From Corallococcus sp. 4LFB (GTDB lineage: Bacteria; Myxococcota; Myxococcia; Myxococcales; Myxococcaceae): 26,875 bases of DNA. Shown here one piece after another: positions 2,328 through 15,832 of this stretch. The notes under the pieces were generated by a model. It was not told where the DNA came from, ran no database searches, and saw nothing but the letters and a program-made list of their open reading frames with translations. The stretch spans positions 1-26,875 of the forward strand of contig NZ_JBKGHJ010000051.1 in the NCBI RefSeq assembly GCF_046520365.1, in the 5' to 3' direction. Position numbers and translations under genes: made by a program. The first letter of the stretch is position 1. Every line of letters starts with the position of its first letter.

Positions 2328-3221
2328 CTACTTCGGCTCGCCCATGACCTCCATCGTGTGCTTGAGCCGCTCCAGGCCCAGCCGCACCAGGGCGCCGCGC
2401 AGGTCGGGCTGGCCCAGGAAGGCCTTCTTGAACACGTCGCGCTCCAGCTTGAGGAGCGTGCAGGGCGTCACGGTGCGTACGGTGGCGGTGGCCAGCCGGC
2501 TGCGCAAGAGGGAGATCTCCCCGAACAGGGCGCCTTCCTCCAGCGTGGGGTAGGGGGACTGGCGGCCGTCGCCGTGCGTGTGGAAGACCTCGCACTGGCC
2601 CCGGATGAGGACGTAGAGCGCGTCGCCCGGCTGGCCCCGGGTGAGCAGCGTCTCTCCGGCGGGGACGGTGCAGGGGACGAAGGCGTCACCCAGCTCGTGC
2701 TGCACCTCCGGGGGCAGGGCGGCGATGAGCGGGTTGCTGCGCAGCGCGTCCGCGAGCAGGCGCTCCCGGGCGGTGACCTGCATCTGCTCGCCCTTGACGC
2801 CGTAGTCCTTGCCCAGCTCCCGGACGCCCGCCTGGGTGAGCTCCAGCAGCACGGCGTCCTCCACCGTCACGATGGTGGCGGTGCGCTGCGTGCCGGTGAG
2901 CAGCGCCAGCTCGCCGAAGAACTCGCCGGCGCCCAGGCGGCCGACCTCCGTGTTGGCGCCGTTGTCGCCGCCGCGCAGCACCGCGACGCGGCCCTCCAGC
3001 ACGACGAACATCGAATGGCCCGGGTCGCCCTCGCGCACGACGATCTGTCCCGCGGGCAGGTAGCGCGTGCACACAGGAGGCGGCGTGGCGGCGCCTTCCG
3101 CATCCGTCGGAGCGCCTGCCGCCGTGGGCGCGGCGGAGGTCGCGGGCGTCTGTCCGGCGGAGGCGGCCGGGGCGGACGGGTGGGCGGACAGCAGGGCCTG
3201 CAGGCGCGCGAACAGGGACAT
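2328..3221 (-). CDS. Protein with two tandem cyclic-nucleotide-binding (CAP effector) domains. A TTG alternative start is at 3230.
   Basis: Two repeats of the cNMP-binding signature appear (…GEFFGELALLTG.QRTATIVTVEDAVLLEL… and …GALFGEISLLRSRLATATVRTVTPCTLLKLER…). The N-terminus is Ala/Pro-rich and low-complexity. There is no DNA-binding HTH. Confidence 0.7.
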   Translation of the reverse strand: MSLFARLQALLSAHPSAPAASAGQTPATSAAPTAAGAPTDAEGAATPPPVCTRYLPAGQIVVREGDPGHSMFVVLEGRVAVLRGGDNGANTEVGRLGAGEFFGELALLTGTQRTATIVTVEDAVLLELTQAGVRELGKDYGVKGEQMQVTARERLLADALRSNPLIAALPPEVQHELGDAFVPCTVPAGETLLTRGQPGDALYVLIRGQCEVFHTHGDGRQSPYPTLEEGALFGEISLLRSRLATATVRTVTPCTLLKLERDVFKKAFLGQPDLRGALVRLGLERLKHTMEVMGEPK

Positions 3222-3433
3222 GGTGCCCAAATGCTACCGGGGCGCCCGGCCGGAACTGTGAAGCGCTTCACAGGCGGTGCGGAGGTGGCCTGAAAGACAG
3301 CCAGGCAGGCGCAAGAGCATCATTGAACAGGGATTGGCCGCTGCTGTCACGTCTGGGTTTTGCCCTCCTGACGCACGGCGACGGGCGCCGGGGATGGCGT
3401 GGGCGGACCGGGACGCCCTACAGTCCCCGGCCC

Positions 3434-4429
3434 ATGGGAGACACGCTGGACGTCGTGGTGGACCTGGGAGACGTGGGGGAGACGCCCGCGGATGCCGTGC
3501 TGCTGAAGTACGCGCAGGGCTTCCACGGGGCGGACGGCGCGGTGTCGCGCCGGCTGGAGGCGGCGGGCGTGGCCATGGACGCCTTCGACCTGCTCCCCGG
3601 GGACCACCGCTTCATCGACACGCGCAGGAGCCTGGGGGCTCCGCTGGTGCTCTTCCTGGGCACGGTGCGCCTGCGGCAGTTCGGCTACCACGAGATCCGC
3701 CAGTTCTCCGTGCGCGCGCTCCAGCTCCTGGAGCCCCGGCACGAGGTGCGTCACCTCGCGTGCACGGTGCACGGCCCCAACTACGGGTTGGACGAGGACG
3801 AGGCCGTGCTGGCCCTGGTGGGCGGCTTCGTGGACGCGTTCCAGCGCGGCAGCGGGCCGCGCGACCTCACGCGCATCACGGTGGTGGAGCTGAACCCCAA
3901 GCGCGTGGAGCGGCTGCGCAAGGCCATCGCGCTTGGGCTGGGGCTCACGCCGGGCGTGGAGCCGCTGATGGGGGCCACGGGCTTCCGCGTGCGGCGGACC
4001 TCCCGCTTCGTCCAGGCGCCGCCCATGGCGAGCGCGGGCGCGAACTCGAACGAGAAGCCCCACGCCTTCGTGGCGATGCCCTTCGCCCCGGAGCTGGAGG
4101 ACACCTACCACTACGGCATCCTGAACCCCGTGAAGGCAGCCGGCCTGCTGTGCGAGCGCGTGGACCAGGCCGTCTTCGATGGTCCCATCATCCAGCGCAT
4201 CCGGGACCGCATCGACACGGCGAAGGTCGTCATCGCGGACCTGTCATTGGCGAACCCCAATGTCTATCTGGAGGTGGGCTATGCCTGGGGACGCGGCAAG
4301 CCCACCCTGATGCTGGTGCGCGACGTGAAGGAGCTGCGCTTCGATGTCTCCAGCTACCGGTGCCTCGTCTACCGGAACATCCGGCACCTGGAGGAGCTGC
4401 TGACGCAGGAGCTGCAGCGCATCGCCTGA
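3434..4429 (+). CDS. Two-domain protein. The N-terminal half is Macro-like (ADP-ribose-binding) and the C-terminal half is nucleoside 2-deoxyribosyltransferase/DNPH1(Rcl)-like. An alternative TTG start at 3323 would add 37 aa.
   Basis: The N-terminus reads VVVDLGDVGETPADAVLLKYAQGFHGADGAVSRRLEAAG, which follows the macro-domain pattern GDIT…DAIVNAAN…GGGV.GAI..AAG. Further on, …TVHGPNYGLDEDEAVLALV… resembles the macro distal motif. The C-terminus reads AFVAMPF…AKVVIADLSLANPNVYLEVGYAWGRGKPTLMLV. This closely parallels DNPH1/Rcl (YFCGSIRGG… ADVVVAEVTQPSLGVGYELGRAVAFNKRILCLF). Confidence 0.55.
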   Translation: MGDTLDVVVDLGDVGETPADAVLLKYAQGFHGADGAVSRRLEAAGVAMDAFDLLPGDHRFIDTRRSLGAPLVLFLGTVRLRQFGYHEIRQFSVRALQLLEPRHEVRHLACTVHGPNYGLDEDEAVLALVGGFVDAFQRGSGPRDLTRITVVELNPKRVERLRKAIALGLGLTPGVEPLMGATGFRVRRTSRFVQAPPMASAGANSNEKPHAFVAMPFAPELEDTYHYGILNPVKAAGLLCERVDQAVFDGPIIQRIRDRIDTAKVVIADLSLANPNVYLEVGYAWGRGKPTLMLVRDVKELRFDVSSYRCLVYRNIRHLEELLTQELQRIA

Positions 4430-6124: not shown

Positions 6125-8308
6125 CTACTTCGGCGCGGGCGCGGAGACCTTCTTCGTCGCGTTGGGCTTGTACGTCATGCCCAGCTCGTTGAAGACGAAG
6201 GAGTAGACGTCCACCTCCTCCTCGATGCGCGCGGACAGCGGCGTGCCCATGCCGTGGCCCGTCTCCGCGTTGGCGCGCAGCAGGATGGGCTTGGGGGACG
6301 CCGTCGCGGACTGCATCCGGGCCACCATCTTGCGCGAGTGGAACGGATCCACGCGCGGGTCATTGGCCCCGGACGTGAAGAGCACCGGCGGGTACTTCGT
6401 CCCGTCCTTCACCTGGTGCACCGGCGAGTAGTTGTACAGCGCCTTGAACTGCTCCGGGTCCTTCACCGAGCCGTACTCCGTCACGTTGAACTGGCCGTTG
6501 GGCGTCAGCTCCGTGCGCAGCATGTCGTAGATGCCCACGCGCGCCACCACCGCGCCGTACTGCTCCGGGTGCTGCGTCAGGGCCGCGCCCATCAGCAGGC
6601 CGCCGTTGCTGCCGCCCTGGATGGCCAGCTTCTTCGGCTTCGTGTACTTCTGGTCCACCAGCAGCTTCGCGCACGCGTAGAAGTCGTCGAACACGTTCTG
6701 CTTCTTCGTGAGCGAGCCGGCCTTGTGCCACTCCTCGCCGAACTCCGAACCGCCGCGCAGGTTCGCCACCGCGAACACGCCGCCCTGCTCCAGCCACATG
6801 CCGGTGACCGGGTTGTAGCCCGGGCTGATGGAGACGTTGAAGCCGCCGTAGCCCGTGAGCAGCGTGGGGTTGTTCCCGTTCAGCTTCGTGCCCTTCTTCT
6901 TCAGGATGGTGAGCGGCACCTTGGTGCCGTCCTTGGACGTGGCCTCCGTGCGCACCACCTCCACGTCGCTCATGTCGACGGGGGCCGTGCGCGCCAGCGC
7001 CGTCTTCGTGAGCTTGTTGTCCGCCGCCGAGTAGCGGAACCACGCGGCCGGCTGGGTGAAGCTGCCGTTGATGACGAGCAGGTCGTCCGCGCCCTGGCGC
7101 ACCAGGCCGCCCACCGACGACACCGGCAGCGTGGGCACCAGCCCCAGCGCCTTGCCCGTCAGGTCCACCATGCGCAGCTGCGACGGACCGCCCAGCTGCT
7201 CCAGCAGGTACAGCCGGCTCTTCGTCGGCACCACGGCCTGCACCGTCGCCTCGCCCTCCGGCACGATGACGGCGGCCTTGTCCAGCGTGGGCGTGGCCAG
7301 GGGCAGCCGAAGCACCTTGCCCTTCGGCGCGTCCTTGCGGCTGATCAGGTACGCCGCGCCGTCGCTGCCAAAGCGCGCGGACACCACCTTGTCCGCGTAC
7401 TTCGCCACCTGCGTCCAGGTGCCCTTGGGACCGTGCAGGAACAGGTCGTACTCGCCGCCGTCGCCGTTGGCCACGCGCGCGAAGGTGTACTGGCCGTCGT
7501 CGCTGGACTCCAGCTCCGTCATCGCGATGCGCGGGAAGTCCTTGCCCAGCGCGTACGAGTCCTTCTCCGTGGGCGTGCCCAGCGCGTGGAAGTACACCTG
7601 CTGGTAGACGTTGCGGTCCTCGGGCGGGCGCTCCTCGCCCCGCGGATGGCGCGTGTAGAAGAAGCCCGTGCCCTGCGCGTTCCACGCGAGGCTGCCGCCC
7701 GCCGTTCCGCTGTTGACGCGCGGCACCCGCTCGTTGGGCATCGCCTTCGCGGAGGCCACGTCCCACACGGACACGTCACCGCTCTCCGTGCCCGCCTTGG
7801 ACATGGAGACGGCGACCTTCTTGCCGTCGTGCGACAGCTGGAACCAGTCGATGGTCGTCTTGCCGGAGGTGTCCACGACCGTGGGGTCCACCAGCACGCG
7901 CTCCTTCGACGTGTCGTCCAGCGAGCCCACCACGATGAGCGTGGGCTGCTGCTTGGGCGGCTGGTACTTCAGCGCCAGCAGCGTGCCGCCCTGTTCGTCC
8001 AGGCCGCCGTAGCCGGGCGACTTCCAGGAGAGGATCTCCGTGATGCGCTGGCGCAGCGGCTCGCGGCCCGGGAGCCTGTCCAGGTACGCGCGCGTGTACG
8101 CGTTCTGCGAGTCCGTCCACTGCCGCACCTTCGGATCCGTCGCGGACTCCATCCACTGGTACGGGTCCGTCACGGTGGTGCCGTGGTAGGCGGTCTCCAC
8201 GGGCTGCTTCTGCGCGGCGGCGGGCTTCTTCGCGGGCGCCTTGCCGGCGGCCCCCACCACCAGCGGCAGCAGCAGCGCGGCGGTGGTCACTGCGATTCTG
8301 GACTTCAT
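6125..8308 (-). CDS. S9A-family prolyl oligopeptidase (prolyl endopeptidase), secreted.
   Basis: 727 aa with a signal peptide (MKSRIAVTTAALLLPLVVGAAG). It has an N-terminal β-propeller and a C-terminal α/β hydrolase domain carrying the GGSNGGLLMGA catalytic-serine motif. A GAGGTGA ribosome-binding site precedes the ATG. Confidence 0.8.
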   Translation of the reverse strand: MKSRIAVTTAALLLPLVVGAAGKAPAKKPAAAQKQPVETAYHGTTVTDPYQWMESATDPKVRQWTDSQNAYTRAYLDRLPGREPLRQRITEILSWKSPGYGGLDEQGGTLLALKYQPPKQQPTLIVVGSLDDTSKERVLVDPTVVDTSGKTTIDWFQLSHDGKKVAVSMSKAGTESGDVSVWDVASAKAMPNERVPRVNSGTAGGSLAWNAQGTGFFYTRHPRGEERPPEDRNVYQQVYFHALGTPTEKDSYALGKDFPRIAMTELESSDDGQYTFARVANGDGGEYDLFLHGPKGTWTQVAKYADKVVSARFGSDGAAYLISRKDAPKGKVLRLPLATPTLDKAAVIVPEGEATVQAVVPTKSRLYLLEQLGGPSQLRMVDLTGKALGLVPTLPVSSVGGLVRQGADDLLVINGSFTQPAAWFRYSAADNKLTKTALARTAPVDMSDVEVVRTEATSKDGTKVPLTILKKKGTKLNGNNPTLLTGYGGFNVSISPGYNPVTGMWLEQGGVFAVANLRGGSEFGEEWHKAGSLTKKQNVFDDFYACAKLLVDQKYTKPKKLAIQGGSNGGLLMGAALTQHPEQYGAVVARVGIYDMLRTELTPNGQFNVTEYGSVKDPEQFKALYNYSPVHQVKDGTKYPPVLFTSGANDPRVDPFHSRKMVARMQSATASPKPILLRANAETGHGMGTPLSARIEEEVDVYSFVFNELGMTYKPNATKKVSAPAPK

Positions 8309-8345
8309 GGTTCACCTCGCATGCGGGTGGTCCCCCGCGGGACGC

Positions 8346-9830
8346 TCATCGCAGGGGCAGCTCCACCAGGGCGGTGGAGAAGGTGTCGAAGGTCTCGTTG
8401 GCGTTGGGCTTCGTGCCCTCGTCCATGTTGCCGAGCATCAGCGCGAAGACGACGCGCGGGTGCTCCGGGTCGTTGGGCCGCTCCGCCACGCCCACGAAGC
8501 ACTTCTGGCCCGTGAGCGTGCCCGTCTTCGCGCGGATGCGGCCCGCGGTGGACTGCGTCGTCTTGCGGCCCGCCAGCGTCCCGTCCACGCCCAGCACCGG
8601 CAGGCTGTCCACCAGCGCGGCGCCGTAGGGCTCCTGGAGGCTGGTGAGCAGCACCCGCGCCATGCCCCGGGGCGTGGCCAGGTTGTAGCGGGACAGGCCG
8701 CTGCCATCCACCGGGCGCAGGTCCTTGGACGGCACGCCCCGGCGCGTCAGCTCCGCGACCAGGGCGGTGCGCAGCGCGGCGTAGCCTTCATTGCCGGTGC
8801 GCTCGCGCGCGAAGCGCATGCCCAGCCGCTCCGCGTACAGGTTGAGGCTCTCCTTGTTCGTCGCGCGCACCAGCTCCGACAGCGGCGGGCTGGTCAGCTC
8901 CACCAGCGGCACCGGCACCGGCGGCATGGGCGGGGTGGGGGCCTCCAGCGACATCGGCAGCCGCGTCACCCCGTGGCGTGCCAGCGCGTCGTCCACGCAC
9001 GCGGCGAAGAGGGCCTCCGGCGCGTCCACGGACAGCTTCACCGCGGCGGCCTGGGGACACGGCCCCCCCGAAGGCGAGCGCCACGTGCACCGCACTCCAC
9101 CGCCCCCGCGCACGCAGGCCAGGTTCGCGCGCTCCGCGTTGACGTCCACGTTCACCACCGCGGACAGCGTGGCGAAGGTGGGGGTCCACTGGACGGAGGG
9201 CGCGTCCGCGCAGGTGGCGCCGGGAGCGCGGGTGAGCGCCAGGTCCACCACGTTCTCGCGGAAGACGAAGGGCGTGGGCGCCGCGCTGTAGGCATACGCC
9301 GCGTCGTCCCAGGCCCAGCCGGGGCCCAGGGCGCCATCCACACCGTCCGTGCCGGCGATGCGCACGTTGCCGCGCCACTGGTGGATGCCGCGCGCCTGGA
9401 AGGCCTCCGCGATGCGTTCACACGCGAGCGCCGTCTCCGGGAAGCGCCACGAGCCCAGCGACGGGTCCCCGGACGCCTGCGCCACCACGTCGCCCAGGAA
9501 CAGGCCTCCCGTCTGCGAGCCCTCCAGGGACACCGGCGTCACGAAGCGGAAGTCCGCCCCCAGCGCGGACAGCACGGCGGAGGTGGACACCACCTTCATC
9601 GTGGACGCGGGCAACAGCCGCACGTTCTCCCGGTGCCTGAAGAGGGGCACCCCGGTGCGAGCGTCCACCACATACGCGCCCGTGATGGCGCCGTCCGCCT
9701 CCAGGGTCTCCAGCAGGGCGTTCGTCACCCCGGGCAGGGTGTTCCGCGGGGCGCCGTCCGGCGTGGCGGGCGCGTGGGTGCAGGCGGACAGGAAGAGGGC
9801 AACGCTGGCGGGCAAGAGGGCGCGGCGCAT
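8346..9830 (-). CDS. dacB: D-alanyl-D-alanine carboxypeptidase/endopeptidase (PBP4, S13 family), a lipoprotein. Longer alternative starts are at 9869 and 9920.
   Basis: It has the SxxK motif (STMKV) and a KTG motif (RAKTGTLTG). The lipoprotein signal is MRRALLPASVALFLSAC. It sits 37 nt upstream of the prolyl oligopeptidase gene on the same strand, so the two are probably an operon. Confidence 0.7.
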   Translation of the reverse strand: MRRALLPASVALFLSACTHAPATPDGAPRNTLPGVTNALLETLEADGAITGAYVVDARTGVPLFRHRENVRLLPASTMKVVSTSAVLSALGADFRFVTPVSLEGSQTGGLFLGDVVAQASGDPSLGSWRFPETALACERIAEAFQARGIHQWRGNVRIAGTDGVDGALGPGWAWDDAAYAYSAAPTPFVFRENVVDLALTRAPGATCADAPSVQWTPTFATLSAVVNVDVNAERANLACVRGGGGVRCTWRSPSGGPCPQAAAVKLSVDAPEALFAACVDDALARHGVTRLPMSLEAPTPPMPPVPVPLVELTSPPLSELVRATNKESLNLYAERLGMRFARERTGNEGYAALRTALVAELTRRGVPSKDLRPVDGSGLSRYNLATPRGMARVLLTSLQEPYGAALVDSLPVLGVDGTLAGRKTTQSTAGRIRAKTGTLTGQKCFVGVAERPNDPEHPRVVFALMLGNMDEGTKPNANETFDTFSTALVELPLR

Positions 9831-10020
9831 GGCGGCGGCCACCGTATGTCGCGTGCCTGGGAGTGTCATGGTTTCCCGCCGGCGGGGTGGGGCGGAGGCG
9901 TGCACGGTTGGACGGAGCACGGGCTAACGGCTTCGCGCGCGGGCTATTCCCGGGCCTGTCCGTCCAGCCACACCGAGTGCCTTGACGCGGCGCCACGCGA
10001 CCCCCATCCTGCCGCGCCCC

Positions 10021-10671
10021 ATGCCTGTCCTACGTGGTGCCGTGACCTTTTCGCGCTTCCGGACCGAGCCGGCCAAGGATGCGCCGTCCGACGTCAAGCG
10101 CTGGCTGACCAAGGGACTCAAGTCCCATGCGTTCGAGCCCATCGACCGCCGCTCCGAGGAGGAGCGCGCCGCCGGTTTCGTGGAGCTGGAGGACCCGGAG
10201 TCCTCCGAGTTCGCCACCGGAAACCTCTTCTATGGCGAGTACGCCCTGTTCGGCTTCCGCATCGACACGCTGAAGGTGCCCGCGTCGATGATGAAGTCGG
10301 AGCTGGACAAGTGGTCCGCCGCCTTCGCCAGGGAGAACGGCCGGCCGCCCGCGCGCGCGGAGAAGAACAAGCAGCGCGCGGAGCTCAAGCAGCTCCTGCG
10401 TCAGCGCGCGGTGCCGCGCACCAGCGTGCTGGACGTGACGTGGAACCTCAAGACGCAGACGGTGCAGGTCTGGGCCGCGTCGCGCAAGACGGTGGATGAG
10501 ATCTGCGTGGCGCTGGAAGGCGCCCTGGCGGTGAAGGTGATTGGCATCACGCCCGCGTCCATGGCGCAGCGCGCGGGCATCGACGAGAAGGCCCTGGGCC
10601 CCACGGCGGAGCTCATTGGCCTGGACCTGCCGGCGACGGCTTCGGTGGAGGACACCCATGGCGAGGCGTGA
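10021..10671 (+). CDS. RdgC-like recombination-associated protein, N-terminal half.
   Basis: MPVLRGAVTFSRFRTEP… parallels the E. coli RdgC N-terminus (MLWFKNLMVYRLSRE). The downstream pattern also parallels RdgC residues 1–~165: …FEPID…GEYALFGFRIDTLKVPASMMKSELDKW… …RAVPRTSVLDVTWNLKTQTVQVWAASRKTVDEICVALEGAL. The upstream TTG at 9982 looks more like a −35 element than a start. Confidence 0.5.
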   Translation: MPVLRGAVTFSRFRTEPAKDAPSDVKRWLTKGLKSHAFEPIDRRSEEERAAGFVELEDPESSEFATGNLFYGEYALFGFRIDTLKVPASMMKSELDKWSAAFARENGRPPARAEKNKQRAELKQLLRQRAVPRTSVLDVTWNLKTQTVQVWAASRKTVDEICVALEGALAVKVIGITPASMAQRAGIDEKALGPTAELIGLDLPATASVEDTHGEA

Positions 10672-11347
10672 GCAGGCGAGGGAAGAGGCGGCGTTCGCCC
10701 GGGGCGATGTCGGCGTGGACGGCGTCGCCACCGAGGAGGAGAAGGACGAAGCCGAGGTCGAAAAGGGCAAGGCGCGCGAACAGCTGCTGCGCGGCCGCGC
10801 CTACCTGGGCCGCGAGTTCATGACGTGGCTGCTGTGGCGCTCGGAGTCGGGCGACCCGCTGGTGGAGTTCGACGGCGCGGGCGTCGTGGTCCTCTTCCTG
10901 GGCAAGGTGGTGCTGCGCGGCGTGGCGGGCGACGTCACGGAGATGAGCGCCAAGGGCACGCTGGCGCCGTATTCGGAGAACGTGCGCCACTCGCTGGACC
11001 GGGGCCTGCTGGTGTCCCAGGCGCGGCTGCGCATCTCCCACGGCGAGCGCGAATACGAAGTCACCCTCGATTCCGAGTTCCTGGACATCCGCGCCGCCAA
11101 GCTGCCCGCGCTCATGACCGAGGAAGAGGATGATCAGCTCTCCGAGCGGCTGGAGCTGACCGAGCAGCTCTCCGGGCTCGTGGACGCGCTGGTGCAGGAC
11201 TTCCTGCCCATGCGCGCCGGCCGCGCCTGGAGCAAGCAGGTGGTGCCCGCGATGAAGGCGTGGATGAAGGGCGAGGAGAAGGGCAGCGACGTGCTCTCCA
11301 AGGCCGCCCGCGCCCGGGGCCGCGACGCCCGGGCCGCCCGGGGCTGA
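10658..11347 (+). CDS. RdgC-like recombination-associated protein, C-terminal half. It overlaps the previous ORF by 14 nt in another frame.
   Basis: An acidic N-terminal stretch is followed by FMTWLLWRSESGDPLVEFDGAGVVVLFLGKVVLRG… and …ARLRISHGEREYEVTLDSEFLDIRAAKLPALMTEEEDDQLSERLELTEQLSGLVDALVQDFL. This parallels the RdgC C-terminal region (…LTEWVRSG… …[60 protein letters not shown]). Confidence 0.45.
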   Translation: MARREQAREEAAFARGDVGVDGVATEEEKDEAEVEKGKAREQLLRGRAYLGREFMTWLLWRSESGDPLVEFDGAGVVVLFLGKVVLRGVAGDVTEMSAKGTLAPYSENVRHSLDRGLLVSQARLRISHGEREYEVTLDSEFLDIRAAKLPALMTEEEDDQLSERLELTEQLSGLVDALVQDFLPMRAGRAWSKQVVPAMKAWMKGEEKGSDVLSKAARARGRDARAARG

Positions 11348-11348
11348 A

Positions 11349-12110
11349 TCACGGTCCAGGCGCTGTACGTCCGCCAATCACCGGGAAGCGCTCGTAGACC
11401 CGCTTGAGCGCTTCCAGGTGGGCGGGATTGTCGTAATCGAGCGGTGCCTCCGTGAGCCGCACGATCCACCCGCCTGACGGCGTGCGCCGCGCCCGCGTGA
11501 GCAGTTCGGCATCGCGAGCCGGCTCCGGGAACCCGATGACCTCCGCGGCAGCCGCGGACCAGTAATTCAGCCACCCGAGGAAAGAGGGAGTCTCCGCCCT
11601 GGGGCTCTTCTCCGGAAGGTTGAGCATGGGAAGCCCCCGGGGTGAACGCTCGGGGTCGTCTGGCGAGCGGCGGAACTGCTGCGCGACCTCTGCGCCGTAG
11701 CCATACGGCGACGCGTGACCCCAGAACGAACGTGCCCCCTCCGCCACGGCCTCGAGCAGCGCCGCCGCTGCCGCGACCGCGGGCCCATCCAGTGGCAGTT
11801 TTGCGTGCACTTCAAGTTGGGGCTGTCCGCCTGGACTGGAGCGCCCTGAGCTTTCAATTCCCCAGACCGTCACGGGGTGACGTTCGTCCCCGTTGCATAC
11901 GACCGGGAATCCACCGTCCTCGATTCTTTCCACGAGCCAGGTGTCCCGCTGTGGCAACGCGATGGGGCGCCCACTTTCGCCAACTTCCCACTCCAGGCGT
12001 AAGCCAGGGAGCGCATTCTCCATCCCATGGATGATATTGAGCGTGCGGCTGTCTTTGCCCGCGAGGGCAGGGGCATAGGTGATGAGTGTCAGTTTTTTTT
12101 GCGTGCTCAT
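11349..12110 (-). CDS. Putative cognate immunity protein for the upstream lipoprotein nuclease toxin. Its ATG overlaps the toxin stop as ATGA.
   Basis: 253 aa with no signal peptide. Its start codon is 4-nt-coupled (ATGA) to the toxin stop. Its 5' end lies in the same low-GC island as the toxin C-terminal domain. The family is not recognised with certainty (possibly Imm52/DUF5953-like). Confidence 0.5.
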   Translation of the reverse strand: MSTQKKLTLITYAPALAGKDSRTLNIIHGMENALPGLRLEWEVGESGRPIALPQRDTWLVERIEDGGFPVVCNGDERHPVTVWGIESSGRSSPGGQPQLEVHAKLPLDGPAVAAAAALLEAVAEGARSFWGHASPYGYGAEVAQQFRRSPDDPERSPRGLPMLNLPEKSPRAETPSFLGWLNYWSAAAAEVIGFPEPARDAELLTRARRTPSGGWIVRLTEAPLDYDNPAHLEALKRVYERFPVIGGRTAPGP

Positions 12111-13036
12111 CGTTTACATTCTGTGACGACGACATCGAGATTGGGAAGTTCTTCGAGCAGCGCGGTTTTATGCGCCTGGGTGCTCACTCCCACGACGAAG
12201 CCATATCCGCATGCCTCTGCGACGTCTCGCTCCTGCTTCAATTGTTTCACTTCCTTCCTGATCTCCTGTTCCTGGACAAAATCATTGTACGAATCAAATT
12301 GATGCGTCTTGATCTCCCACAGTTTGCGGACACCGATTTGCAGTGCATCGAAGCGCACGCCACCCACGAGCACGTCCATCCCGGGATAACGGTTTGGTGG
12401 GAACTTGTCGGCGCACTCGTTATGCGAGTCATCCTCGCCCGCGTGTGGCACGGGAACAGGCTCGCAACTGGCACGGCCCGTCCGGCCCACAAGGACAGGG
12501 GGCACCGGGGGCTGCCTGCCCTGGCCTGCTGGCTCCGGTTCCAGCCTGGGCTTCGGCTTCGCTACAGTATCCCGGGACGCGACCCTCGCCCCTCGTGAGG
12601 TCCCTGCTTCCTCCGGGTAGAGGTGGCGCAGTTCATACGCATCCAGTTCCTCCTTGATGGCGACGGCGACCACCACCGCTCCCAGCACGATGACGGCTCC
12701 CACGGCGATCTCAGGCGCCGCCAGCACGCAGAACCCGAGCCCCACGGTCGCGGCATCGACGGAGGCGACGGTGCATCTTCCCGTGGTGTCGTGGAACTCG
12801 ACCCGGTCGTGGTCGAGTGCTCGATAGCACCGCTCCACCAGCGCGGGCCAAGGCTGGGACGCTTCGCGGACAACGCACCGTCCATCATCCCTCCAGGGGA
12901 GCGCCGCCGCTCGTCGCAGGTTTGCATTCCTCGTATTGCGGACCGTTGACGCTCTGGGACGCGGCTCCGTCGTGGCGCAGGCCGAGAAAACGAGCAGAAG
13001 CCAAAGCGCGGTGCATGTCCGGAGACTCATGGTCAT
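12107..13036 (-). CDS. Polymorphic-toxin-like lipoprotein with a C-terminal PD-(D/E)xK nuclease domain (SitA-like). An alternative ATG is at 13030; the ORF track extends it to 13150.
   Basis: The type II signal peptide is MTMSLRTCTALWLLLVFSAC|ATTE (lipobox Cys, no Asp at +2). A central hydrophobic segment follows. The C-terminal ~110 aa carry GMDVLVGGVRFDALQIGVRKLWEIKTHQFD, a D…(D/E)xK nuclease signature. This domain is encoded by DNA that is clearly lower in GC than the rest of the window. Confidence 0.55.
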   Translation of the reverse strand: MTMSLRTCTALWLLLVFSACATTEPRPRASTVRNTRNANLRRAAALPWRDDGRCVVREASQPWPALVERCYRALDHDRVEFHDTTGRCTVASVDAATVGLGFCVLAAPEIAVGAVIVLGAVVVAVAIKEELDAYELRHLYPEEAGTSRGARVASRDTVAKPKPRLEPEPAGQGRQPPVPPVLVGRTGRASCEPVPVPHAGEDDSHNECADKFPPNRYPGMDVLVGGVRFDALQIGVRKLWEIKTHQFDSYNDFVQEQEIRKEVKQLKQERDVAEACGYGFVVGVSTQAHKTALLEELPNLDVVVTECKR

Positions 13037-13039
13037 CTC

Positions 13040-13083
13040 TTCACAACAAGCAAAAGCCTCCAGGGCCTTGGACCCGGAGGCTT
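13040..13083 (-). terminator. Rho-independent terminator between the Cys-rich peptide gene and the toxin gene.
   Basis: The minus-strand RNA reads GCCUCCGGGUCCAAGGCCCUGGAGGC, a 9–10 bp GC stem with one bulge. It is followed directly by UUUUGCUUGUUGU, and then by the toxin RBS and ATG. Confidence 0.5.
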
Positions 13084-13094
13084 CTGGATGCGCT

Positions 13095-13316
13095 CTACGG
13101 GTTGATGCAACGCCAGACGCCGCAGGAGCCCTCGCCGTCGCCACAGTCATACTGGCTGTAGCACGGCTTGCAGCTGGCCGAGCAGATCATCCGGACCGCC
13201 TGGGTGTCGCTCGTCTCCGACGCCGGGCCGGGAACCATGGCCAGGGCCGAGCCCGCCATGGCGCCGATGATCAGGGCAAGGTCGGGAACGGACCGCTTCA
13301 GTCGCGACGGCTTCAT
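13095..13316 (-). CDS. Small secreted cysteine-rich peptide. It is a 73-aa precursor with a signal peptide and a six-Cys C-terminal core.
   Basis: MKPSRLKRSVPDLALIIGAMAGSALA|MVPGPASETSDTQAVRMICSASCKPCYSQYDCGDGEGSCGVWRCINP. A GGAGGAAGC ribosome-binding site lies 4 nt before the ATG at 13316. The signal peptide has an AxA cleavage site. Six Cys fall within the last 26 residues. Confidence 0.45.
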   Translation of the reverse strand: MKPSRLKRSVPDLALIIGAMAGSALAMVPGPASETSDTQAVRMICSASCKPCYSQYDCGDGEGSCGVWRCINP

Positions 13317-13553
13317 GCTTCCTCCGGGGGGAATGGGGCCGGAGCATCCGGGCCCACACAGCGAGGGCATTCGACCAGACGCGCAGAGGCGATCCAAGTT
13401 CGACGCTGCTCCAGTCTGGCGCGCTGTCCGAACCGCAATGGAGCAAGCGGCCGCGCCAGTCCGGCGCGGTGCCTGTCTGTCCCAGGGCGGAAGGCAGAGG
13501 CACGGGACTCGCAATGACTCGCGGCCAATCCCTCCCGCCCGAGCAGGTGTCCC

Positions 13554-15832
13554 GTGCCGTCCGCCCCCAGCACCGAAGCCATCCAGCGCATCTCCCTGAA
13601 GAACCGCGAGTACGCCTACATCGAGGACGCCAACCGCGGCGTCGTGCTGATGGAGGTGGGCCCGCGCGTGCTGACGCTGGAGGCGCACCTGACGCTCGTG
13701 GCGAAGGAGCGGATGGTGGAGGTGGGCGCCGGCAGCTGGTGCGTGGTGCGCAACCCCGTGGTGCGCGTGGACGGGCAGGTGGCGCTGGACGACTTCGGCC
13801 AGGCCCGCGTCGCGGTGGGCGACCGCGAGGTCCGCGTGGGCCCGAAGGTGTTCCCGCTGTACCCCGGCGAGGAGCTGGAGGGCGACATCGTCCCGGAGTA
13901 CGTCCTGGGCGTGTCGGAGGCGCTGCGGCTGCGCGCGCTCACCGCCTTCATGGACACCAGCGCCCCGGACGCGCCCGCCGCCGCGAGGCCGGTGACGAGT
14001 GGCTGGTGCGCGGCCCCGGCCGCTACGTGCCAGGCGAGGCCGTCACCGTCGTGTCGCTGGAGAAGGCTCGCGTCCTCAAGGAGACCGAGTACTGCGTCAT
14101 CCTCAATCCCGTGGACCGCGCCACCGGCCGCGTCCAGGAGGGCCGCCGCAAGGTCGTCTCCGGGCCGGACGTCTTCTTCCTGGAGCCCGGCGAAGCGCTG
14201 GAAGGGGACGTGCGCCGCAAGCACGTCCTGTCGGAGCTCCAGGGGCTGAAGCTCCAGGCGCTGGATGACCTCTCCGAGAACGAGGGCGGCGAGCCCCGCG
14301 CGCGCAAGGCCGGTGACACGTGGATCGTCCGCGGCCCGCGCACCTACGTGCCCAGCGAGAAGGTCCTCATCCACCGGGAGATCTCCGCGCTGTCGCTGGG
14401 GCAGGGGGAGGGCCTCTACGTGCGCGATTTGCGCTCGGGCAAGGTGTCGCTCGTCCAGGGGCCGTGCCAGTTCATGCCGGAGGCGCACCAGGAGCTGCAC
14501 GAGAAGCGCCTGTCCCCGGACGCGGAGGCGCTGCTGGGCCTTGCTTCGCCGCTGCCGGCTTCGGCGGACGCGAAGGACGTCCGCGCGCCGCGCCCCGCGA
14601 CCCAGGCGGAGAAGGGGGACCGCACGCGCGCCATCGTGCTGCGCATCGAGGACAACACGGCGGTCCTCATCAACGACTTCGAGACCAACCACGCGCGCGT
14701 GGAGTTCGGCCCCGCGAAGGTGATGCTGCGTCCGTACGAGGACGTCACCGTGTTGGACCTGTCCGGCAGCACGCCCAAGCGCCCGCGCCAGCTCAAGGTG
14801 TTGATGCTGCGGCTGGGGCCGGACTTCGCCACGGACCTCTTCGAGGTGGCCACGCGCGACCACGCGCGGCTGCGCATCAAGCTCTCCTACAAGTGGCAGT
14901 TCGACGTGCAGGGCGACCCGGAGAAGGACAAGGCCATCTTCCGGGTGAACGACTTCATCGGGTACGTGTGTGAGAACCTCGCGTCGCGCATCCGCCAGGT
15001 CGCCGCGGAGAACGAGTTCGAGACCTTCCACAAGAACGCCAGCGTGCTCATCCGCCGCGCCATCTTCGGCATGGACGACGCGGGCCGCGCGCGCAAGGAC
15101 CGCCTCTTCTCCGAGAACCAGCTGCGCATCATCGACATCGACATCAAGGACATCGCCCCCGTCGACGAGAAGACGGCCCTGAAGCTGCGCGAGGCCATCG
15201 ACACCAACATCCAGATCCAACTGGACGCCTCACGCCAGGAGGCCCAGGCCGCCGCGGAGCTCAAGCGCATCCGCAGCGAGGAGGAGAAGCAGCTCGCGGA
15301 CATCGCCAGCCACCGCAAGTCGGAAGCCGAACGCCAATCCCTCATCGAACTGCAGAATCGCAATCACCAGCTGGAGACGCTCAGCCGCGCCAAGGTGGAG
15401 GCGGAGGCGCAGCTGGAGCGGGCCCGCGTGGAGAGCGAGGAGGCCCTGGCCCGCGCCGAGTCCGACGCCCGCGCCTCCCGCATCCGCGCCGAGGCGGAGG
15501 CCGAGCGTGAACGGCTCACCACCCAGGTGACGCTGGAGCGCCAGCAGCGCCTCAACGACCTGGAGGTGGAGCGCCAGTCCCGGCTCGCGGAGGTGGAGGC
15601 CTCGCAGTTCCGCCAGCGCGTGGAGTCCCTGGGCGGCGGGGAGAACTTCGTGAAGGCCGTGGCCGCGCAGGCCCAGGCCGCAGTCGTCGGAGGCCTGGAC
15701 AAGGTCGTCTTCCTGCCCAGCGGCTCCAACCTCAACCTCTTCGACGCCATGCAGGGGCTCCTGGGCCCCGGAGGCCAGCCGCGCCTGTCCGCCCACCACA
15801 CCCCGACACCGCCCGGAGACACCTCCGCCTGA
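13554..15832 (+). CDS. Major vault protein (MVP) homologue of about 760 aa. It is interrupted by a single-base frameshift near 13975–13990: 13554–13986 reads in one frame and 13987–15832 in the frame of the ORF 13469..15832.
   Basis: Direct residue-level similarity to vertebrate MVP runs along the whole length. MVP repeat domains: ISLKNREYAYIEDANRGVVLMEVGP…, then …VFPLYPGEELEGDIVPEYVL… (compare human FPLYPGEVLEKDITPLQVV), then AGDEWLVRGPGRYVP (human AGDEWLFEGPGTYIP). Further matches include EYCVILNPV…FFLEPGEALEG…, …AGDTWIVRGPRTYVPSEKV…, and GEGLYVRDLRSGKVSLVQGP (human EGIYVQDVKTGKVRAV). The shoulder domain reads VLMLRLGPDFATDLFEVATRDHARLRIKLSYKWQFDV (human [36 protein letters not shown]). A long coiled-coil cap helix follows. 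The C-terminal cap-ring motif is GSNLNLFDAMQGLLGPGGQP (human [22 protein letters not shown]). Confidence 0.75.

Follow-up and report, generated by a model that had tools for sequence, protein, structure and literature searches.

A probable family of exported six-cysteine mini-proteins in Myxococcaceae, encoded by an independent gene beside a DUF6310/DUF5953 cassette in Corallococcus

Much is known of the small cysteine-rich proteins that eukaryotes export, among them defensins, knottins and fungal effectors; those of bacteria are barely charted, with myxobacteria the main bacterial source so far described. Knottins follow the loop consensus CX(3-7)CX(3-6)CX(0-5)CX(1-4)CX(4-13)C, with disulfides I-IV, II-V and III-VI forming a threaded knot, and the potato carboxypeptidase inhibitor is an inhibitor cystine-knot mini-protein that binds its enzyme tightly. 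In the CS-alpha-beta fold of the bacterial cis-defensins, an alpha-helix stabilised by cysteines packs on a beta-sheet. MgrB, a very small protein, combines a hydrophobic helix at its N-terminus with cysteines in the periplasm. Here, we examine a gene for a 73 aa protein with six cysteines, called the mini-gene and the mini-protein below, in a DNA stretch of 26,875 nt from Corallococcus sp. 4LFB (contig NZ_JBKGHJ010000051.1, positions 1 to 26,875), which is referred to as the window. The mini-gene lies directly upstream of a cassette of two genes, encoding a DUF6310 lipoprotein (putative toxin) and a DUF5953 protein (putative immunity protein).

Two sets of proteins already described in myxobacteria invite comparison. 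A survey of bacterial cis-defensins found 74, many of them in Corallococcus and Myxococcus, with the pattern CX(2,18)CX(3)CX(2,12)CX(4,17)CXC (PMC11561630). Their pre-proteins are 30-130 aa long and have a signal peptide, often an acidic N-terminal tail, and six cysteines; those from myxobacteria include the corallosins of class I and xanthusin-1 of class II, the latter with no antimicrobial activity and no assigned function (PMC11561630). In Myxococcus xanthus, sitA toxin genes are often preceded by sitB (PMC5562445, PMC8546572). SitB has a type I signal sequence and a predicted beta-barrel, and raises the efficiency of toxin transfer; sitB overlaps sitA by 11 bp in one operon, and SitB has been proposed to act from unlinked loci too (PMC5562445). 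In SitA toxins, the toxin domain is preceded by an escort domain of ~375 aa (PMC8546572).

In our view, the mini-gene is real and independent, and its product is probably exported and rich in disulfides and belongs to a new small family. The best explanation for its layout is a self-contained transcription unit of ~0.36 kb, made up of a promoter-like block, a ribosome-binding site (RBS), the ORF and its own terminator. The ATG is at 13316 with GGAGG 4 nt ahead of it, the 73 codons run from 13316 to 13098 and the TAG stop from 13097 to 13095. The six cysteines are residues 45, 49, 52, 58, 65 and 70. The positions of the ORF, RBS, cysteines and terminator agree with a first-pass annotation of this DNA, and the 73 aa translation is identical to the one quoted there. 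A longer ORF starting from a GTG at 13688 was rejected, as all homologues begin at M-K/N with a conserved RBS. In order of transcription, the parts are as follows.

13369 to 13398, minus strand: promoter-like block, CTTGGAT-N17-TCGAAT, recognised from conserved columns across loci.
13317 to 13368, minus strand: presumed 5' untranslated region (UTR), with an inverted repeat at 13355-13336 and GGAGG at 13325-13321.
13239 to 13316, minus strand: putative signal peptide, codons 1-26, MKPSRLKRSVPDLALIIGAMAGSALA, recognised by inspection of the sequence.
13188 to 13238, minus strand: polar acidic linker of variable length, codons 27-43.
13098 to 13187, minus strand: six-cysteine domain, codons 44-73, ICSASCKPCYSQYDCGDGEGSCGVWRCINP, with invariant cysteines.
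13095 to 13097, minus strand: TAG stop, read from the sequence.
13042 to 13086, minus strand: intrinsic terminator, a hairpin then a T-rich tail, from a terminator scan and conservation.

Long ORFs are frequent in this window (70.5 % GC), with 71 ORFs of at least 40 aa within 8 kb, and ORF length alone is therefore uninformative. In the mini-gene frame, the GC content at third codon positions (GC3) is 0.905, whereas the first and second positions give 0.55 and 0.58. Among 5.8 billion proteins searched, there were 10 full-length homologues with 65-90 % identity, eight of them from named Corallococcus, and among the full-length homologues 40 alignment columns, including all six cysteines, are invariant. 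The orthologues are 73-78 aa long and every length difference is in frame. The first-pass annotation had named a lack of conservation in related genomes as a ground for rejecting the gene; in those examined, which cover at least 10 Corallococcus lineages, the ORF is kept full-length, with in-frame indels only. The mean ratio of non-synonymous to synonymous divergence (dN/dS) is 0.37 (Nei-Gojobori, 55 pairs), and the pooled ratio of non-synonymous to synonymous differences (pN/pS) is 0.31 for the cysteine domain and 0.55 for both the signal and the linker. The nearest relative of the mini-protein is found in Corallococcus exercitus SDU142 (90 % identity), whose other genes in this region are 85-98 % identical to those of the window. 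For the same genome pairs, dN is 0.14-0.20 for the mini-gene versus 0.022-0.026 for a flanking RdgC-like gene, which shows that the mini-protein evolves fast, at ~6-8 times the rate of this neighbouring core gene at the protein level.

The family is small. An exhaustive search of 1.84 billion cluster representatives with a hidden Markov model (HMM) returned seven related clusters and one spurious repeat protein, and a second, word-indexed profile search returned 27 proteins of 73-103 aa. Where the source names the organism, these come from Corallococcus, Pyxidicoccus or metagenome-assembled genomes (MAGs) of Myxococcaceae, and this uncharacterised family is accordingly one of Myxococcaceae wherever an organism is named. 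A scan of species-representative genomes gave 5 loci with a narrow alignment and added Myxococcus sp. Y35. Two copies per genome are found in some cases, namely P0004 and P0017 in strain CA054B, and P0001 and P0025, both named C. exercitus; paralogues are 32-50 % identical. All 28 sequences compared (28/28) share the framework C-x3-C-x2-C-x(4-6)-C-x6-C-x4-C, which in the window protein is C-x3-C-x2-C-x5-C-x6-C-x4-C. The six cysteines and G63 are invariant in the 28 sequences, and the linker of the longest member exceeds that of the shortest by more than 20 residues, with all length changes in frame. The window protein has no Pfam or NCBIfam match at E <= 0.1, and a comparison of the 28 members with Pfam at E <= 10 gave nothing consistent, only scattered matches, none of them shared by more than two members. 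PDB sequences searched with the profile gave nothing below E = 0.5, and literature searches on small cysteine-rich proteins in Corallococcus found nothing relevant to the family. A tblastn search of phage and plasmid collections found no match, and there is therefore no sign of a mobile-element origin.

The N-terminus of the mini-protein has the features of a Sec signal peptide. By inspection, the n-region has a charge of +4 (K2, R5, K7 and R8) and is followed by a hydrophobic core, LALIIGAMAGSALA, of 14-16 residues, with A24-L25-A26 at positions -3 to -1 before M27. In the 28 members, A14, L15, G18, G22 and L25 are invariant and ALAMVP is conserved, and the whole pattern expected of a Sec signal with a signal peptidase I (SPase I) site, namely a basic n-region, a hydrophobic stretch of 7-15 residues and small residues at -3 and -1, is kept in all 28. 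One homologue carries the name 'Secreted protein' in UniRef. A Tat signal was rejected, as there is no RR motif, and a lipoprotein was rejected, as there is no lipobox cysteine. The Sec signal proposed in the first-pass annotation thus appears to be borne out, judging from the conserved charge, core and A-L-A pattern. SPase I would be expected to cleave between A26 and M27. In the mechanism that we propose, the N-terminal 26 residues would act as a Sec signal peptide and SPase I would cut after A-L-A, which would release a mature protein of ~47 aa into the periplasm, from where it may go on to vesicles or to the medium. The N-terminal tryptic peptide expected from the mature protein would be MVPGPASETSDTQAVR.

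The mini-gene also appears to have transcription signals of its own. The columns of CTTGGAT-N17-TCGAAT are invariant or near-invariant in 10 Corallococcus loci, including L006, where the mini-gene is translocated, and in L003 the block lies just past the stop of the upstream gene and hence is non-coding there. It is weak and sigma-70-like, with 4/6 positions in each hexamer, and was not called by a consensus scan; we regard it as a putative promoter. The GGAGG is invariant in 11 loci. The terminator has arms GCCTCCGGG (13081-13073) and CCCTGGAGGC (13065-13056), then TTTTGCTTGTTGTG, and the hairpin starts nine nt past the stop, or eight if a flanking C-G pair is counted. A terminator scan gave a stem of 14 pairs, and the RNA fold is -29.2 kcal/mol (z = -3.3), with none of 200 shuffles as good. 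The hairpin is present in 10/10 aligned Corallococcus loci, where 96 % of cells pair, versus 26-56 % when the partner is slid, and one pair occurs as A-U, G-C and U-A. The U-tract is imperfect (UUUUGCUUGUUGUG), and weak in L004. With its GC-rich hairpin, U-tract and conserved structure, this is a Rho-independent terminator, and the earlier call of an intrinsic terminator was right. The hairpin stays with the mini-gene both in L004, where no cassette lies behind it, and in L006, in a different region of the genome; it is thus the mini-gene's own terminator rather than one that arose to serve the toxin.

No Rfam family reached its threshold in a scan of 12900-13650, where the weaker matches, to a microRNA family and a frameshift-element family on the terminator, are chance ones. 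The 5' UTR contains a GC-rich inverted repeat (13336-13355, minus strand), GGGCCCGG-ATGCT-CCGGCCC, in which the loop sequence GGATGC is conserved. Covariation does not support this repeat, as 76 % of cells pair, which is not above controls.

The two genes downstream of the mini-gene are listed for context only.

12107 to 13030, minus strand: DUF6310 lipoprotein, putative toxin (Pfam PF19829, E = 1.5e-58).
11349 to 12110, minus strand: DUF5953 protein, putative immunity protein (Pfam PF19378, E = 2.6e-113).

The DUF6310 gene has candidate ATGs at 13036 and 13030, which are 6-12 nt past the T-rich tail of the terminator, and across the cassette-bearing strains the toxin start is ~6-25 nt past this tail. 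The gap of 64 nt between the stop of the mini-gene and the toxin start holds the conserved terminator. The N-terminus of the DUF6310 protein ends LLVFSAC, which reads as a lipoprotein signal, and the DUF5953 gene overlaps the DUF6310 stop by 4 nt. We note that the label 'sitA-like' for this neighbour is unproven; it is a 307 aa lipoprotein, far shorter than a SitA with its ~375 aa escort domain. By eye, a PD-(D/E)xK-like motif (FDALQ...LWEIKTH) is seen in the DUF6310 domain. Literature searches on DUF6310 or DUF5953 returned nothing relevant.

The synteny of the site is shared across Corallococcus, with a vault-like (major vault protein, MVP) gene pointing away on one side, and two converging RdgC-like genes and then a peptidase S13 gene on the other. 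At this site, the mini-gene is intact whatever the state of the cassette. Both cassette genes are intact in the window and in L003, L005, L007/L008 and L016. In L001 (C. exercitus), the DUF6310 gene lacks residues 205-268 and the DUF5953 gene is intact; both are fragments in L002, and L015 (Corallococcus coralloides KYC2213) has DUF5953 only. Neither is present in L004 (Corallococcus macrosporus), where the mini-gene is followed by the RdgC-like genes. Copies of the mini-gene in L006, L009, L011, L012, L013 and L018 have no DUF6310, DUF5953 or shared neighbour. The DUF6310 family is also far larger, with more than 1,067 proteins at E <= 1e-5 versus 27 mini-proteins; there are several per Corallococcus genome, and others in Stigmatella and several Myxococcus species. 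Co-occurrence across genomes, which would mark a component of the cassette, is thus not seen for the mini-gene.

Because the mini-gene persists without the cassette and elsewhere has unrelated neighbours, and because DUF6310 is far commoner, the adjacency in the window is positional, not functional; the cassette is a variable insert behind the mini-gene terminator in some Corallococcus lineages. The first-pass annotation had raised the possibility of a toxin chaperone tied to the cassette, which does not hold, as the mini-gene and its terminator occur with the cassette absent, decayed or reduced to DUF5953, or elsewhere altogether. Attenuation of read-through into the toxin, which it had suggested, is likewise not supported as the purpose of the terminator, as the same terminator is present in L004 without the cassette and in unrelated contexts. 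Of the homologues, which it had proposed to seek beside other toxin genes, some are adjacent to the cassette, and others have unrelated neighbours and no DUF6310. There is no room for a promoter belonging to the toxin gene itself, so transcription of the cassette may depend on read-through or on a promoter inside the mini-gene, and any such dependence would be a side effect of insertion. What the window shows is therefore a variable insertion site behind a terminator rather than a three-gene system, which guards against annotation of the mini-gene as a toxin accessory.

Several further observations concern the cassette and other neighbours of the mini-gene. The DUF6310 family proteins are all ~305 aa and are 65-84 % identical over their full length. 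The internal deletion of the toxin gene in L001 and its loss in L015, with DUF5953 intact in both, fit orphan immunity and a cassette in decay. In L006 (Corallococcus praedator), genes for an AHH nuclease, Imm11, Imm49, DUF2169 and PAAR-like proteins surround the mini-gene (2331-4379 and 6805-12228). This region resembles an effector/immunity island of a type VI secretion system (T6SS), and is a second hotspot of competition genes with no genes in common with the window. In L013, a gene for a 77 aa lipoprotein with a four-cysteine C-terminus (...ISCDAQGRCPVNFYCSATWTCRYIGGHP) lies directly downstream of a mini-protein paralogue (6344-6577), and its product appears to be another small cysteine-rich envelope protein.

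The cysteine domain is confidently predicted to be compact. In AlphaFold2 (AF2) models, the predicted local distance difference test (pLDDT) score of the domain is 83-88 in the full-length model and 83.8 when the domain is modelled on its own, and is below 50 over much of the linker. The models contain only short bridges and one helical turn, with no helix of at least 4 residues, and across the family the domain carries a net charge of -3 to +1. In the structure prediction that the first-pass annotation had called for, a compact cysteine domain is therefore seen and a cysteine-stabilised helix is not. The three disulfides would presumably form in the periplasm, and the mature protein would then have two parts, an acidic, flexible linker and, at the C-terminus, a domain of ~30 residues in which the three disulfides make a compact knot. 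An iron-sulfur (Fe-S) or radical-SAM meaning of the CxxxCxxC motif was rejected, as a Sec-exported 47 aa peptide is implausible as a cluster protein.

Given the fixed scaffold, the rapid change of the loops and linker, and the neutral-to-acidic charge of the domain, we favour specific binding of a target, as inhibitor or ligand, over membrane disruption as the way in which the mini-protein would act, though the binder or inhibitor mode is a tentative proposal. Equally speculative is the wider possibility that the family represents an unrecognised disulfide-rich mini-protein fold of predatory myxobacteria, serving as a fast-evolving specific binder outside the cytoplasm. If true, it would be a new class of small effector, distinct from a defensin, a knottin or a toxin accessory, and possible roles would include inhibition of an enzyme of prey or competitors, shielding of the cell's own envelope from secreted hydrolases, or a secreted cue.

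Four points weigh against this picture of an independent, exported mini-protein that binds a target. The export and expression of the mini-protein are predictions from sequence. For a bacterial gene, a dN/dS of 0.37 is on the high side, and relaxed constraint could be part of the cause. In L006, the mini-gene is again found in an island rich in toxin and immunity genes, and a loose ecological link to competition loci is possible. Finally, the searches run gave no conserved partner gene, structural neighbour or family match for a binder or inhibitor role.

The N-terminal segment can also be read as an uncleaved anchor, with the N-terminus inside and the C-terminus outside, that would hold the cysteine domain in the periplasm on a flexible stalk. 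The mini-protein would then be a membrane-tethered, MgrB-like small regulator that modulates a membrane sensor or transporter. We regard this as unlikely, though worth keeping in mind. Conservation of the segment is good even where paralogues are only 32-50 % identical, the invariant A14, L15, G18, G22 and L25 are spaced i, i+4, i+8 and i+11, giving a helical face of small residues, and the linker of variable length resembles a stalk. However, the hydrophobic run between P11 and P29 is only 16-17 residues, which is short for a membrane span, and a canonical A-x-A site is conserved, with G22 at -5. Among orthologues, the segment is not more constrained than the rest of the protein (pN/pS 0.55 versus 0.31 for the cysteine domain), and no conserved gene for a membrane-protein partner was found in the neighbourhoods examined. 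A released mini-protein remains the preferred reading.

It is improbable that the mini-protein is secreted as an antimicrobial, in the manner of a defensin, knottin or bacteriocin, and serves predation or competition. Such a role would suit a predator's protein that is small, exported and rich in disulfides, the more so as bacterial cis-defensins are known in Corallococcus and Myxococcus (PMC11561630), and its fast evolution and the presence of CxxxC and GxC elements point the same way. However, none of the 28 members matches the cis-defensin pattern CX(2,18)CX(3)CX(2,12)CX(4,17)CXC and none has the terminal CXC, and no sequence or fold match of the mini-protein to cis-defensins was found. The second loop of the mini-protein has 2 residues, which is too short for a knottin, and the fourth has 6, and 0/28 members fit the knottin consensus given above. 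No helix in the AF2 models reaches 4 residues, a charge of -3 to +1, as in this domain, is not typical of membrane-active peptides, and there is no linked immunity or export gene in the neighbourhoods examined. The label of knottin- or defensin-like peptide given at first pass is accordingly withdrawn, on both cysteine spacing and charge.

An accessory or chaperone of the adjacent lipoprotein toxin, acting like SitB, seems still less probable. The gene directly downstream of the mini-gene does encode a lipoprotein with a nuclease-like domain, the mini-protein has a type I-like signal, and SitB sets a precedent that includes proposed action from unlinked loci (PMC5562445). The synonymous divergence of the mini-gene is also closer to that of the cassette than to that of the core flank. 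On the other side, a co-operonic overlap is replaced here by a conserved terminator and a 64 nt gap, and the product is only 73 aa. The mini-gene persists where the toxin gene is deleted or absent (L001, L002, L004 and L015) and at loci without DUF6310. The numbers are also out of proportion, with ~27 mini-proteins to more than 1,067 DUF6310 proteins, and no mini-protein was found in Stigmatella, which has DUF6310.

There is very little likelihood that the mini-protein is the precursor of a ribosomally synthesised and post-translationally modified peptide (RiPP), in which a maturase encoded elsewhere would make thioether or lanthionine cross-links in the Ser/Thr/Cys-rich C-terminus. The many Cys, Ser and Thr residues of the C-terminal core, which follows a conserved N-terminal 'leader', and the CxxxCxxC motif could suggest this, but more than 10 neighbourhoods contain no LanB, LanC, LanM, radical-SAM, YcaO or peptidase-transporter Pfam domain, the N-terminus has the full Sec architecture of charge, core and AxA unlike a RiPP leader, and AF2 predicts a compact fold for the unmodified sequence. 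Lastly, a chance ORF in GC-rich DNA, an alternative that the first-pass annotation had allowed, is refuted by conservation (a conserved frame with 27 homologues, many of them annotated by NCBI, a dN/dS below 1, invariant cysteines, and a conserved RBS and terminator) and by the GC3 of 0.905, even though spurious long ORFs are plentiful in the window and no called gene on record encodes exactly this protein.

Relative to the same genomes, synonymous divergence (dS) is 0.29-0.37 for the mini-gene, 0.44-0.66 for the cassette and 0.08-0.16 for the RdgC-like gene (9982-10671). As dS for the mini-gene and the cassette exceeds that of the RdgC-like gene, this suggests an older or recombinant history for the variable segment. 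The interval between the MVP and RdgC-like genes is a hotspot of gene gain and loss. A gene for a cysteine-rich lipoprotein of 237-249 aa is found between the MVP gene and the mini-gene in L002 (5139-5888) and L003 (5195-5908). A 3' remnant of the same gene (...RVTFRWI[RH]D*) is found in L005 (5771-5929) and L016, with faint traces upstream of window position 13400.

A bacterial homologue of the major vault protein is unusual in itself. In the window, the MVP gene (13554-15832, plus strand) has a 1 nt deletion relative to L001 in a C-rich run at ~13971/13972, which splits it into two frames, 13554-14249 and then the frame of 13469-15832. Intact genes (755-771 aa) are called in L001-L005, L007 and L008, and L015 and L016 align over the full length. 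The split in the window is either a sequencing error or a recent pseudogene.

Because the mini-protein evolves ~6-8 times faster than the RdgC-like core gene, it can reasonably be put forward as a molecule of interaction with prey or competitors, and its compact scaffold is of possible interest for peptide engineering. The family contributes a distinct six-cysteine framework with no counterpart in Pfam, NCBIfam or PDB.

Comparison with the known systems gives likenesses and differences in each case. Like sitB, the mini-gene comes from a myxobacterium and immediately precedes a gene for a lipoprotein toxin, here a putative one, and its product has a type I-like signal. However, sitB is co-operonic with an 11 bp overlap, whereas the mini-gene is parted from the toxin gene by the 64 nt gap and its own terminator, and, comparing by description, SitB is a predicted outer-membrane beta-barrel and the mini-protein has 73 aa and is distributed independently of the toxin. 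The likeness to MgrB lies in the very small size, the N-terminal hydrophobic segment and the cysteines, but the conserved AxA site and short core of the mini-protein favour release, and there is neither homology nor a linked sensor kinase. With the potato carboxypeptidase inhibitor, the mini-protein shares a six-cysteine domain of ~30 residues, a rigid scaffold, variable loops and a short free C-terminal tail; its cysteine spacing is outside the knottin consensus and there is no homology or fold match, so that the functional analogy is speculative. The mini-protein differs from the cis-defensins in that its framework lacks the terminal CXC and no cysteine-stabilised helix is predicted, but the two have in common the genera in which they are found, a small pre-protein, a signal peptide, an acidic tail and six cysteines.

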